Assembly (NCBI GenBank): GCA_963790205.1
Contig: CAWBNQ010000001.1
Span: 768,001 to 832,000 of the forward strand
DNA from: Nitrospirota bacterium
Lineage (GTDB): Bacteria > Nitrospirota > UBA9217
Length of the DNA stretch: 64,000 nucleotides
Direction: 5' to 3'
In this document: piece after piece, positions 9,252 through 55,562 of the stretch
Numbering within the stretch: the stretch's first letter is position 1
How the letters are laid out: every line of letters starts with the position of its first letter
Translations under genes and position numbers: made by a program
The notes under the pieces: generated by a model
The model's input: the letters and a program-made list of their open reading frames with translations, nothing else
What the model was told of the DNA's origin: nothing
Database searches by the model: none

Positions 9252-9388
9252 GACGCACTCATAAAAAAAATTTTCAGCCCGGCTGAGGACGCAGAGATTA
9301 CAGAAAAAAGAAATTTCTATTTTGTATCCTGCCTCTGTCAGCGGTACATTTGCTTTTTACGGCTTTATCTTTTTGAAAGGCGGGTATT

Positions 9389-23138: not shown

Positions 23139-23218
23139 GTTTCTCGAAACTCACCAAGATATTTTTTGGAGCATCCGCGGTCTCTGCCTGGGAAAATCCT
23201 CACGTTGCTGCTAAATGC

Positions 23219-34757: not shown

Positions 34758-36242
34758 ATGAATCCTCCTCCCAACCGAATAGAGGACGAGCAGTTCCGCA
34801 CTCCCCTGTTCGACGCAATGGTCAACCTTGCCGAGAGTCGCAAGGTCTCCTTCCATACCCCCGGTCATAAGAGCGGCAAAGGCATTTCAACCCGGTTCCG
34901 AAAATTCGTGGGACCGCGCATTTTCTCCATCGACCTTACGACACTTGACGAGGTCGACTCGCTCCAGAACCCCACGGGAGTCATCAAGGAAGCGCAGGAG
35001 CTTGCCGCCAGGTCCGCAGGCGCGGACCGCTCGTACTTTTTAGTGAACGGCACCACCGTGGGAAACCACGCCATGGTGGCCTCCACGACCGGGCCCGGCG
35101 ATAAAGTGATCATCGCCCGTAACTGCCACCGCTCCGTGCTTACCGGTCTTATCATGAGCGGAGCCCAGCCGATCTTCTTTCAGCCGGCCTTTGACCGGGA
35201 CCTCAAGCTCACCCTGAACGTCACCTTCGCGGCCGCGAAACAGGCCATTGACGCCAACCCCGGGGCGCGGGCGCTGCTTATCACGAGCCCGAACTACTAT
35301 GGCCTCTGCGCCGATATCGAGAAGATCATTCCCTATGCCCACGAGAAAGGCCTTATCGTGTTCGTGGACGAGGCGCACGGCCCTCACCTCAAGTTCAACC
35401 CCAAGCTGCCCATCTGCGCGCTCGAGGCAGGGGCCGACCTCTGTGTCCAGTCCACGCACAAGATCGTGGGCGGCATGACCCAGGCCTCCATGCTCCATGC
35501 AAAAGCCGAGCGGATCAATATCGACGATGTGACAAACACGCTTAAACTCCTGCAGACCACGAGCCCGTCCTATATCCTGATGGCATCCCTCGACCTGGCG
35601 CGCATGCAGATGGCCACGGAAGGCAAGAAACTCCTGAACCGGACTATCAAGCTTGCCGAGGAAGCCCGCGCGGAGATCAACAAGATCCCCGGCATCACCT
35701 GTTTTGGCAGGGAGCAGGCCAGGGGAGCGGGCATGGCGGACATGGACGTGACCAAGCTCACCATCACGGTCTCGGATATGGGGCTTTCGGGTTACCATGT
35801 GTCCCATGTGCTGAACACCCGCTTCGGCATCCAGGTGGAGATGGCGGACCCTTTCCACGTGCTCGTGATCGTATCGATCGGAGACCGCCAGGACGACCTG
35901 AACCTGCTTGTGGAGTCTCTCCGCGTGATCGCCATGGAGACCGGGCTCCAGGGCGCGCTCCTGCCGCTCGATAAGGTCCATCCGCCGATGCTCCAGAACC
36001 GTTTTGCCATGACGCCCCGCAAGGCCTTCTATTCCGACAGCGAGCTTGTGAACGTGAACGACGCCGCGGGCAGGGTCTCGACGGAGATCGTGACCGTTTA
36101 TCCCCCCGGCATCCCGCTCCTTGTCCCCGGAGAAGAGATTTCCCGCGACGCCATCGACTACCTCCAGAACATGGCAGGTCTCGGCGCGATCATCGACGGC
36201 ATGAACGAGAACAACACCCTCGTGCGCGTGGCAAAGGCATAA
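34758..36242 (+). CDS. speA: Orn/Lys/Arg decarboxylase (Bacillus SpeA-like)
   Basis: FHTPGHK, LVNGTT, DEAHG, QSTHK, TTSPSY and YPPGIP motifs; substrate inferred from operon context. Confidence 0.85.
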   Translation: MNPPPNRIEDEQFRTPLFDAMVNLAESRKVSFHTPGHKSGKGISTRFRKFVGPRIFSIDLTTLDEVDSLQNPTGVIKEAQELAARSAGADRSYFLVNGTTVGNHAMVASTTGPGDKVIIARNCHRSVLTGLIMSGAQPIFFQPAFDRDLKLTLNVTFAAAKQAIDANPGARALLITSPNYYGLCADIEKIIPYAHEKGLIVFVDEAHGPHLKFNPKLPICALEAGADLCVQSTHKIVGGMTQASMLHAKAERINIDDVTNTLKLLQTTSPSYILMASLDLARMQMATEGKKLLNRTIKLAEEARAEINKIPGITCFGREQARGAGMADMDVTKLTITVSDMGLSGYHVSHVLNTRFGIQVEMADPFHVLVIVSIGDRQDDLNLLVESLRVIAMETGLQGALLPLDKVHPPMLQNRFAMTPRKAFYSDSELVNVNDAAGRVSTEIVTVYPPGIPLLVPGEEISRDAIDYLQNMAGLGAIIDGMNENNTLVRVAKA

Positions 36243-36399
36243 TCCTTAAATCCCTTGGACACGCACAAGACCGGATTTTCATCGATTATCTTAGGGCCTA
36301 AAGCCTTGTACGAGTCATCTCGATAAAAGTATCACTGTCGTTTTGTTGCCAAGCAAGTCTGCGTAATCTTCTATGTTAAAAAGCAAGTCTTTCTTTTGG

Positions 36400-36625
36400 C
36401 ATAAACGCATCTCTTTTATTAAGGAGCGATTTATAGCGAACGCAATCTTCAAACCCAATCTTCTATGAGCAGACAGTCTTCGTTGATGAAGAAAACGCTG
36501 CATTGCCTTGATTAATTATGAAGGCGTGGGTTCGTAGTCTGTGGAAGCACAGACGGCATCTTTCGATCCGCTGTAGATTACGCAAGACGATACCCACGGT
36601 GAAACACGGGTTTAAGATCGGCTAT
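36400..36625 (-). ncRNA. Putative bridge/seek RNA of the IS110-family element
   Basis: Stem / internal loop / GAAA-capped stem at 36525-36598. Loop strands match the two target flanks; a 9-nt match to the donor end lies at 36459-36467. RNA boundaries approximate. Confidence 0.75.
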
Positions 36626-36638
36626 AAATATCGGTTTT

Positions 36639-37709
36639 TTATTGAACAACCGCCGTAGTGTATTCTTGTTGGTTCTTTAAAACGTACCGGACGCGGTTTA
36701 ACAGCTTCCGGGCGATCCGAACGATAGCTTTGGTCTTTGTCATGTGTTTGCACAGCTCATTGAACGCCATCATTAGGGCAGGGTCTTTTCGCACCGCCGT
36801 CCAAGCGCTTTCGATCAAGACGAAGCGAAGCTGGGCGTTCCGCCTGCCGGTCATGCCGGTTTTAAGGTCCTTTTCCCCGCTGGAATCGGTATCGGGGATA
36901 AGGCCAACGTAGCTGCAGAGTTTGTCGAGCGTCTTGAAACGATTGATGTCATACAGCTCCGTCAAGAGCATCATCGCGGTCAAGGTACTGATTCCCGGCA
37001 CGGTCTTAAGTATCCGGACATTGTTCCGATAGTCGTCCGAATTGGCCAGGGCGCGGATCGCCCGGTTCATCTCGGCAATGATATGCCGAAGATGCTTAAG
37101 CTCGTCTAAGTGTATCTTGAGTGATAGGTTGCCGCTGGCCCGCTCCATTTGTACGGACTCGATCCAATTGATGAAGCGTTTGGACCAGTAACCGTTGATG
37201 AAATCGTCCGGTATGTCGATACCGTAAAAGCTCAGGATCGACTTGATCTGGTTCTTGCAGCGAGTTTGTTTCCTTACCATGCTATTTCGAGTACGAAGGA
37301 GGCTGCGGTCCTCGACTTTTGGTCGCGTAGGGACATAGATCCCTTCGATGTCGCCGTTTCTGAGGCTCCGGGCTAGCTTGCGGCAGTCCACCCGGTCGGT
37401 CTTGCCTGCGCGCTCTTTGTCTTTTGTGGGCACATCCGCCGGATTGACCACGAGACATTGTATGCCTCGCTCCTGAAGCCGGTCATGTATCCAGAAACCG
37501 GAGTAACCGGCCTCATAGACCGACTTATAGGCTGCACCCGGAAAATTGCGTTTGAGATAGTTTACCAGCACCCCGACCTCCGGAGGTTGTGAAAAGGTCT
37601 TATGCTCGAACTGATCGGTAAAAATACTGATGCTCCAACTTTTCTTATGAATGTCCATACCGACATAAATTTGTTGACCAGTGAAATCGAGTCTGCTAAC
37701 GTTATTCAT
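36639..37709 (-). CDS. IS110-family DEDD recombinase/transposase
   Basis: VGMDIHK, YEAG and KTDRVDC (RuvC-like DEDD); TVPGI and SYVGLIPDTDSSG (Tnp_20, catalytic Ser region). Confidence 0.95.
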   Translation of the reverse strand: MNNVSRLDFTGQQIYVGMDIHKKSWSISIFTDQFEHKTFSQPPEVGVLVNYLKRNFPGAAYKSVYEAGYSGFWIHDRLQERGIQCLVVNPADVPTKDKERAGKTDRVDCRKLARSLRNGDIEGIYVPTRPKVEDRSLLRTRNSMVRKQTRCKNQIKSILSFYGIDIPDDFINGYWSKRFINWIESVQMERASGNLSLKIHLDELKHLRHIIAEMNRAIRALANSDDYRNNVRILKTVPGISTLTAMMLLTELYDINRFKTLDKLCSYVGLIPDTDSSGEKDLKTGMTGRRNAQLRFVLIESAWTAVRKDPALMMAFNELCKHMTKTKAIVRIARKLLNRVRYVLKNQQEYTTAVVQ

Positions 37710-37832
37710 GGCAAGTCTCCTTTTGGTGTATTTTGGTCCGGGATAGACCTAATATACCTTAAGTCAGACTTGCCTTTTTAATCATAAGGTCTGTGTGCTC
37801 TGCGGATCAACTTATACCGTAAGGAGCTCTTC

Positions 37833-39074
37833 ATGCTTTTTCAAGCGTTGCTCGGTCTCATGGTGTTCACCGGGATCGCCTGGCTCATGAGCGAGAACAG
37901 GAGGGGCGTCCGGTACACCATCGTCCTGACCGGCATCGCGGTCCAGCTCTGCATTGCGGGCATCCTTCTCTTCATTCCGTTTTTCAAGAAGTTCTTTTTG
38001 CTTCTCAATAATGTCGTCCTGGCGCTTGAATCAGCGACCAGGGCGGGCACGTCCTTTGTGTTCGGTTATATCGGCGGCGGCGCGCCGCCTTTCCTGCTCC
38101 AGGACCCGGGATCGAACTTCATCCTCGCTTTCCAGGCGCTCCCGCTCGTGCTCGTGATCGGAGCGTTATCAGGGCTTCTCTTTTACTGGCGAATATTGCC
38201 GTATATCGTACGGGGCTTCTCCTTCCTTCTTCAGAAAACCATGAACATCGGCGGCGCTCTCGGGCTCGGAGCCTCGACCACGATCTTCCTCGGCATGGTG
38301 GAAGCGCCGCTCGTCATCAAACCGTATCTCAAGAACATGACCAGGAGCGAGCTCTTCTCGCTCATGACCGTTGGCATGGCCTGTATCGCCGGGACCGTGA
38401 TGGTCCTGTACGCGACGATCCTTCAAGGCGTGATACCCGACCCGCTCGGCCACATTCTCGTCGCGTCTTTTATTCACGTGGCCGCAGCCATAACGATCGC
38501 ACGCATCATGGTGCCCGAGTCCGGGGAGGAGACCTCGGGCAGCTTTATTCCCCGGAGAACGGCCACCAGCTCCATGGACGCCGTGGTCAAAGGGACCATG
38601 GACGGTCTTCAACTCCTTCTGAACATCATCGCCATGCTCGTGGTCATGGTGGCCCTGGTGCATCTTGCGAACCTGCTCATCGGCCTGCTTCCCGACCTGG
38701 GCGGCAAGCCGCTCACGCTTCAGCGCATTCTCGGTTTCGCCATGGCCCCGATCGTCTGGCTCTTCGGCATCCCGTGGCCGCAGGCCCAGACCGCCGGATA
38801 CCTCATGGGAACCAAGACCATCCTGAACGAGCTGCTCGCGTTCTTGGAAATGTCCAAGCTTCCGGCCGAGGCGCTCGACCCGCGCAGCCGCCTGATCATG
38901 ACCTATGCCCTCGCGAGCTTCGCCAACTTCGGAAGTCTCGGTATCCTCATCGGCGGCCTAGGGAGCCTCGCGCCGGAGCGGCGCGACGAGGTCGTGGGGC
39001 TCGGCATGAAGGCGCTCGTTGCGGGCACGCTCGCCACCTGCATGACGGGCGCGGTGATCGGGATATTTACCTGA
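37833..39074 (+). CDS. CNT-family (NupC-like) Na+/H+:nucleoside symporter
   Basis: FVFG, FLGMVEAPL, GTKTILNE and FANFGS motifs. Confidence 0.92.
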   Translation: MLFQALLGLMVFTGIAWLMSENRRGVRYTIVLTGIAVQLCIAGILLFIPFFKKFFLLLNNVVLALESATRAGTSFVFGYIGGGAPPFLLQDPGSNFILAFQALPLVLVIGALSGLLFYWRILPYIVRGFSFLLQKTMNIGGALGLGASTTIFLGMVEAPLVIKPYLKNMTRSELFSLMTVGMACIAGTVMVLYATILQGVIPDPLGHILVASFIHVAAAITIARIMVPESGEETSGSFIPRRTATSSMDAVVKGTMDGLQLLLNIIAMLVVMVALVHLANLLIGLLPDLGGKPLTLQRILGFAMAPIVWLFGIPWPQAQTAGYLMGTKTILNELLAFLEMSKLPAEALDPRSRLIMTYALASFANFGSLGILIGGLGSLAPERRDEVVGLGMKALVAGTLATCMTGAVIGIFT

Positions 39075-55193: not shown

Positions 55194-55562
55194 GAGTTAA
55201 GCACCTATTTTACCCAGAATGGACGCAAGAAGCAAGATTTTTGGCCGAGAAGGGAAACGAATTTTCGCGGATAAAACCATGACGAAAAAAGCATTTGGGT
55301 ATGGATACGGCCGGGTTTGCACTGATTTTTAATAGTAAAACCGACAGTTGCGAATCAAATTCGACCCAAATTGAAAACAAAATTCAGCCGCGAAGGCTCT
55401 AAGACTCAAAGAAAACATGAAGAATTAAGGTATTTTACAAATAGGTATTTATTCACTGAATGAATTTCTTCGTGCCCTCGAGTCTTTGTGGCGTGCTTGG
55501 TTCCGGCTTGTCCGGGTTAGGGAAACATCACGCAAATCCCGCGGCCCCGTGTCAATCCGCTG

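Follow-up and report, generated by a model that had tools for sequence, protein, structure and literature searches.

An IS1111-group insertion sequence in a Nitrospirota genome occupies tandem-repeat arms that match its predicted guide RNA

The 64,000-nt stretch of a Nitrospirota genome analysed here (the window) carries an IS110-family element that is very probably programmed against a multicopy intergenic repeat, as the first-pass annotation of this DNA had proposed. The boundaries and the core of the element were defined, its empty allele was recovered, all seven copies in the genome were placed in the repeat, and its guide sequences were found to match the repeat and to co-vary with the target in relatives. 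The insertion site is very probably set by an RNA from the 3′ non-coding end of the element. The transposition mechanism is not new, as RNA-guided targeting is known from IS621 and ISPa11; what merits attention is how an IS110 clade and an unnamed family of paired tandem arms are linked to each other and to the GxxExxY protein (TIGR04256), which we take to be a PD-(D/E)XK nuclease.

The element body spans 1,421 nt (36370-37790, minus strand), with the same sequence in six full copies, and the element measures 1,423 nt when one core is included. It was assigned to the IS110 family by NF033542 (210 bits, cut-off 140), and the protein encoded by its recombinase gene (36639-37709, minus strand; 356 aa) contains both PF01548 and PF02371. 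The residues D19, E66, D105, D108, and S277 were located using motifs and alignment, S277 being placed by alignment to the SG motif of ISCro4. Non-coding DNA amounts to 269 nt downstream of the gene and 81 nt upstream. The sub-terminal inverted repeats at the right end (36378-36390, plus strand) and the left end (37766-37779, plus strand) are 13–14 nt long, within the range of 7–17 bp given for IS1111 elements in the consulted part of PMC11208160. Based on the predicted RNA downstream of the gene, the long sub-terminal inverted repeats, and the order of the guides, the element is assigned to the IS1111 group. The upstream host gene encodes an Orn/Lys/Arg decarboxylase (34758-36242, plus strand) and is preceded by AdoMet decarboxylase and spermidine synthase genes, while the downstream gene, encoding a Na+-dependent nucleoside transporter (37833-39074, plus strand), begins 40 nt past the element. 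The beginning of the nucleoside transporter region has a paralogue at G000:C4:22714-22793 (G000 being this genome). Two other, distant IS110 types were also present, in two copies each (C1:496675-497655, C1:229726-230706, C2:81259-82131, and C5:25588-26460).

The first-pass annotation had derived the insertion site by deleting the element in silico, which left the unit TCTGCGTAA at 36358-36366 followed by two more in-phase units at 37790-37807. These coordinates were correct, and the predicted junction is a real empty allele: in contigs from X2 (study P2) and from X3 (study P3), 36366 is followed by 37790. In these two of the four runs compared, representing two studies, 1,423 nt are skipped, three letters being ambiguous. 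Across ~980 nt, the X3 contig (7,265 nt) showed 5 + 2 differences from the window, its flanks being ~99% identical, and in X6 (study P4), a more distant relative, the same right flank was joined via a diverged left flank. X1 contained the element and no such joint; it was set aside because it may be the source sample. For a second copy (L001), X3 and X4 (one study) gave a joint that skips 1,424 nt, contains unknown letters, and lies near ~1.2 kb of other sequence; this joint is unclean, though it fits to within one base. Where this genome has the element (L001:1391-2843), two hairpins of the X3/X4 strain are separated by ~1.2 kb of other sequence, and the hairpin cluster is therefore a variable region.

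The empty allele skips the body and one core, indicating that the element inserts at a short core and makes no target-site duplication. CT is the conserved core (left copy at 36368-36369 and right copy at 37791-37792, plus strand), rather than the TCT first proposed; the shared preceding T is particular to the target in the window. On the gene strand of relatives, the core reads AG at 105 of 106 left ends and at 73 of 89 right ends (15 GG and 1 AA). The base beside the right-end core was A in 46, G in 28, T in 11, and C in 3 of 88 relatives, which rules out TCT. CT is also the core reported for IS621 in the consulted part of PMC11208158. The flank 10-mer AAGCAAGTCT is present at 36351-36360 and again at 36381-36390, as annotated, but the match carries no weight: the flank word is host DNA, because it lies outside the part skipped in the empty alleles and is altered in the X6 relative, and it was thus rejected as a part of the element. 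The same word occurred six times in the genome after removal of the six copies (once within the split copy), compared with once in simulated sequence.

Mapping of all copies in the 4.34-Mb genome yielded six full copies with an identical body and a seventh that is split between G000:C3:1073721-1074430 and C11:1-729, the pairing of the halves being inferred. The split copy is broken in mid-gene, with halves that overlap by 3 nt, and C3 continues for ~12.6 kb with unrelated sequence; it looks as if another element had inserted there. Without exception, the seven copies were found in one multicopy intergenic repeat, within runs of TCTGYG units at 9–10-nt spacing, and their mismatches to the 15-mer implied by the guides number 0, 1, 1, 1, 1, 1, and 2. 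Sites with up to one mismatch occurred 12 times in the genome (six copies removed) and never in simulated sequence. Of the 28 sites with up to two mismatches, 7 were filled, namely 7/14 with the central 8 nt intact versus 0/14 without (Fisher p 0.006, for an 8-mer picked post hoc). The copy in the window is the least typical of the seven: it has two mismatches, entered between the first and second repeat units of its arm, and occupies a lone arm with no partner within the 300–370 nt searched on each side. The junction of an arm with the left end was present in 1 other genome of 300, and the pattern of the right flank of the window was found in G000 alone among 301 genomes.

Two arms contain short pieces of the left end of the element. 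At G000:C1:291855-291872 (L001:1306-1323), an arm ~90 nt from another copy carries 12 nt of the left end without the body, and is likely the scar of an eighth insertion, since deleted at a short shared word; in the X3/X4 strain, 112 other letters replace 9 of the letters at this scar. In another genome and in an arm of another subtype (L277:1430-1525, G021:C82), a target half and core are followed by 15 nt of the left end and then by a core with its target half. A CT on the edge of the sub-terminal inverted repeat marks the join, and the scar could reflect mis-excision at this inner CT.

The target in the window consists of a left half within the first repeat unit (36358-36367, plus strand), in which 36361-36367 correspond to target positions 1–7 and match the first guide at 7/7, and a right half (37793-37797) that matches its guide at 3/5 and is followed by the third unit (37799-37807; together 37793-37807, plus strand). 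A genome-wide count established that the repeat is multicopy, as the annotation had supposed: the tandem TCTGYG-N2-4-TCTGYG occurred 97 times, versus twice in an order-4 Markov simulation of equal length, and in-phase triples occurred nine times with the six copies removed, versus none in the simulation. Around most copies the repeat is organized as an arm, a spacer of a few tens of bases, and a mirror arm. Arms of the target subtype numbered 28, compared with 3 simulated, and 24 of them fell outside long ORFs (by a crude mask, with ORFs covering 84% of the genome); in eight pairs both arms passed the pattern. Five further subtypes, defined by our own patterns, were represented by 7–62 arms each. 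An exact 16-nt arm was found in 26 of 61 genomes of the family, with a maximum of 102 in G005, and its reversed control in none. The recombinase was not found in a search of 40 relatives that included G005, and the repeat is therefore considered a host family exploited by the element. The annotation had also listed looser relatives of the repeat in the window at ~9285-9305, ~23173-23190, and ~55540-55560; none passes the arm pattern, and only the one near 9290 resembles a worn arm by eye.

The predicted bridge RNA or seekRNA (36432-36629, minus strand, with predicted ends) comprises a target-binding loop followed by a donor-binding loop. The fold of 36400-36640 was better than those of all 200 shuffles (z = -4.13), and two similar loops were recovered from 41 aligned sequences, with 23 consensus pairs, 9 of which had changes on both sides. 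An Rfam search gave a single match at E 0.99, which was disregarded. The first loop contains a left target guide of 7 nt plus core (36575-36583, minus strand) and a right target guide of 5 nt plus core (36539-36545), the latter followed by two handshake-like bases (36537-36538; together 36537-36545, minus strand), and would thus specify a 7 + CT + 5 target. The top-strand complement comes first, which is the guide order given for IS1111 elements in the consulted part of PMC11187229. In the second loop, the right donor guide (36460-36467, or 36458-36467 with two handshake-like bases, minus strand) matched the right end and core of the element at 8/8. The left donor guide position (36502-36511, minus strand) matched at AAGG only, and donor recognition is therefore not fully explained by these guides.

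Co-variation between guides and targets was tested in relatives of about 55% identity or more, leaving out loci at 35–43% identity, as also in the tree described below. Among 88 loci, 71 could be parsed, and one locus was retained per distinct guide (30 guides each). For guide 1, 4.6 of 7 positions agreed with the flank of the same locus (2.34 when shuffled), or 6.43 versus 3.5 when a one-base shift was allowed; for guide 2, 4.3 of 5 agreed (1.69 when shuffled). None of 5,000 permutations reached the score of either guide, counts that overstate independence because the relatives are kin. Recombinases that are 83–92% identical differ in their guides, and their flanks differ to correspond. At 65/65 loci (own copies included), the two bases that follow the right target guide equalled the first two of the left end, six of these having changed together. 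In the donor loop, the first handshake-like base equalled the flank base in 30/42 cases (21.1 when shuffled; reached by 1/5,000), and the second showed no co-variation (7/42 versus 5.3 when shuffled). This collection amounts to a clean natural set of reprogrammed bridge RNAs, with 30 distinct guide–target pairs, a nearly fixed scaffold, and a CT core. Approximately one-third of the guide-1 cases fit only via a one-base register shift, located beside the core in L037, L039, L052, L055, L040, L043, L050, and others; together with the 15 GG right ends, this suggests tolerated bulges or core mismatches. The element was recently active and its free sites are about as numerous as the filled ones, and it would be useful for studying mismatch and one-base register tolerance in IS1111 systems.

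In the mechanism we propose, the 3′ non-coding RNA would select the site by pairing with 14 nt of target DNA that have the CT core at their centre. By analogy with the biochemistry of IS621 and IS1111 elements, the element would be excised as a circle, a promoter would form at the joined ends and drive transcription through the gene and the RNA, and the two guides would pair with opposite target strands; cleavage beside CT, RNA-guided strand exchange, and handshake pairing would complete the insertion. Joining of the ends in silico gave a predicted promoter (TTGCTT-17-TATGAT), composed of a -35 box within the right-end inverted repeat (36381-36386, minus strand, read by eye) and a putative -10 box (37781-37786, minus strand) at 17 nt from it. 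In the linear element, a promoter scan returned 2 sites versus 2.1 expected. A hybrid promoter-like site formed by host flank and element end (37781-37810, minus strand) scored 9/12 and points towards the recombinase gene, a score within chance expectation. The circle joint was absent among the eight joints listed from contigs, which drop rare forms. The gain for the element is likely a renewable set of intergenic landing sites.

We also consider that the guide may need assistance from structure, the site being opened by a hairpin or cruciform of the paired arms or by a bound host protein such as the GxxExxY nuclease. In six of the seven copies, the insertion is at the outermost unit of a partnered arm. 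Folding with DNA parameters, and without a shuffle control, gave -26.7 and -30.2 kcal/mol for two empty elements, and 23 of 27 good guide matches lie in arms by pattern; as nearly all good matches are in arms, sequence and structure are statistically inseparable here. Against this, the window copy sits in a lone arm, many relatives outside the clade insert at flanks that lack an evident repeat yet match their guides, and ISEc11 is described as moving to a short linear target in the consulted part of PMC11187229. Structural assistance thus seems unlikely, although not remotely so, and a linear 14-mer would likely suffice as the target, because the window copy entered an arm without a hairpin partner. 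That the recombinase protein itself reads the repeat, the match in the non-coding end being a by-product, is highly improbable: nearly identical recombinases differ in guides and flanks together, and the guides sit in a conserved, co-varying RNA fold. Still less probable, and already largely refuted, is the idea that the element made or spread the repeats through insertion and excision footprints, for which the left-end remnants in two arms (G000 C1 near 291,860 and G021 in L277) and a hairpin spacer matching the sub-terminal inverted repeat across 14 nt might speak, but against which stand the exact 16-mer in genomes such as G005 where the recombinase was not found, the bracketing of GxxExxY genes by arms of many subtypes, the presence of the same element ends in relatives that insert elsewhere, and the identity of that spacer as a variant of an ordinary spacer in the G056 array. 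Targeting by the RNA is the preferred reading.

IS621 inserts into the REPs of E. coli. The presence of IS110 elements in REP sequences has already been reported (PMC1525189, PMC11187229), and the bridge RNA mechanism is described in PMC11208160, PMC11208158, and PMC13626964; these sources are cited here for the parts consulted. Like the IS1111 seekRNA elements ISPa11 (P. aeruginosa REP), ISEc11, ISKpn4, and ISPst6, the present element combines a DEDD recombinase and sub-terminal inverted repeats with a long non-coding end downstream, matches its target in two short stretches, of which the complement of the top strand comes first, always enters a multicopy palindromic target at the same place and in the same direction, and shows apparent natural reprogramming among relatives (PMC11187229; compared by architecture, not sequence). 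Unlike those elements as described there, it targets the tandem 9–10-nt arm of a long-spacer hairpin rather than a GTAG REP or attC, and its target loop is followed by a second, donor-type loop. With IS621 it shares the 7 + CT + 5 layout of the target, a pair of loops, handshake-like bases that follow the right guides, and a predicted promoter at the joined ends (PMC11208160, PMC11208158). It differs from IS621 in the placement of its predicted RNA, which is 3′ of the gene and opposite in strand to the CT strand of the target, in its 13–14-nt inverted repeats, and in its weak left donor guide; the two recombinases have remote similarity only (E 5e-6). The RNA downstream of the gene and the long sub-terminal inverted repeats, both IS1111 features, make ISPa11 a nearer model than IS621. 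The likeness to IS621 put forward in the annotation thus held for an IS110 element with guides to a multicopy repeat, but not for the group to which the element belongs.

On inspection, the arms have tandem units, a long spacer, and no GTAG or CGTC tag, and so fall outside the GTAG/CGTC REP families, in which the tag stands at the foot of a 5–13-bp stem (PMC3733652, in the part consulted). Arms of this kind are not covered in the parts of PMC3733652 and PMC6006769 examined. The target agrees with the description of the Geobacter class 1–3 repeats, namely tandem 7–9-nt units in opposite-strand pairs with a variable spacer in intergenic DNA (PMC2700814, for this and the following comparisons, as far as its examined parts go). 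In 2009, the IS110-family element ISGme8 of Geobacter metallireducens was listed 14 times beside class 1 paired tandem-repeat sites, which resemble the sites here in their paired, oppositely oriented tandem arms and variable spacer. The comparison covers the sites, and ISGme8, unlike the present element, goes with an 8-nt class 1 unit. The class 2 units of G. metallireducens (CTCCGTG) are one base from the CTCTGTG subtype here, and not from the ATCTGCG subtype hit by the element. The authors read the G. metallireducens repeats as possible IHF/HU sites, and the parts of PMC2700814 examined contain no mention of a guide RNA or a GxxExxY link. No description of the present target was found in our literature search, the scope of which excluded ISfinder, most subscription papers, and the bridge-RNA supplements, so that the elements may be listed there. 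To call the repeat poorly described, as the annotation did, was fair, but its architecture and the presence of an IS110 at such sites were in print in 2009. The repeat is also more than a 9-nt array, since its arms are paired and form a hairpin.

To our knowledge, GxxExxY is a large family without known function. Judged from the sequence comparisons that follow, GxxExxY genes are bracketed by paired, inverted arms of 9–10-nt tandem units, and the repeat represents one subtype of these. In this genome, eight GxxExxY matches were found, and their flanks bear inward-facing tandem arms of other subtypes than the occupied one. Among the best 90 of 236 matches by score (loci near contig ends being partly skipped), 72 genes had inward-facing arms on both sides, compared with 1 of 80 control window pairs; three also passed in the wrong orientation. 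The target subtype itself flanked GxxExxY genes in G059, G022, and G071 (by cross-matching of two hit lists) and, within the blind set, in G072. One query detected no GxxExxY gene in the examined DNA surrounding element loci L001-L151, and the observed insertions are therefore in gene-less arms. A literature search that excluded most subscription papers found no report of GxxExxY-linked repeats.

The relatives, whose nearest named hosts were Nitrospirota and Syntrophales, were arranged in a quick tree of 97 recombinases, close relatives only, with arms labelled by our own pattern. The clade of the element comprised 16 rows (SH-aLRT 99), of which 12 lay in such arms and 3 at other sites, the last one lacking a flank; a single row outside the clade was labelled as lying in arms. 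In other clades, 17 of the 97 rows had GTCATTC-type flanks resembling the NTS/SRM repeat. L135, a 68-aa fragment 95% identical to the recombinase, had a guide and a flank that were not arm-like. As the arm label came from our own pattern, a blind test was performed from the guides alone. The 12 in-clade guides gave 39 matches in the 90 GxxExxY flanks versus 1 in the 80 controls, and the 50 outside guides gave 51 versus 12. Two or more matches were obtained by 6/12 in-clade and 12/50 outside guides, and no match by 4/12 in-clade guides. A first run on 36 flanks had given 12 versus 2. The guide of the element itself matched 1 of the 90 GxxExxY flanks, and none of the 36 in the first run. These counts point to a real but moderate preference of the clade for GxxExxY-type arms. 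Within the clade, the guides of relatives appear to have been re-tuned to other arm subtypes.

The multicopy intergenic hairpins known as NTS/SRM repeats (dRS3, CGTC-tagged) are likewise tied to a small nuclease gene, that of Ssn (PMC11893778, PMC3733652, in the parts consulted). Unlike the arms here, they have a different consensus and short stems, and Ssn is a GIY-YIG nuclease (PMC11893778), while the gene tied to the arms is GxxExxY. Quite possibly, though short of probably, an IS1111 clade has specialised on GxxExxY-cassette arms with its guides re-tuned among subtypes, the arms serve GxxExxY as a substrate as SRM does for Ssn, and sister clades have switched between both nuclease–repeat systems by guide change alone. 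If so, the guides of the clade would constitute a catalogue of an unnamed repeat family. The tie between an IS110 target and repeat arms around GxxExxY genes also suggests a direct test of cleavage. A tandem array of approximately eight hairpin units of the target subtype was observed at L201:1-1450 (G056:C1), its units interrupted by a GxxExxY gene and by a further short insert, in an arrangement resembling a cassette array.
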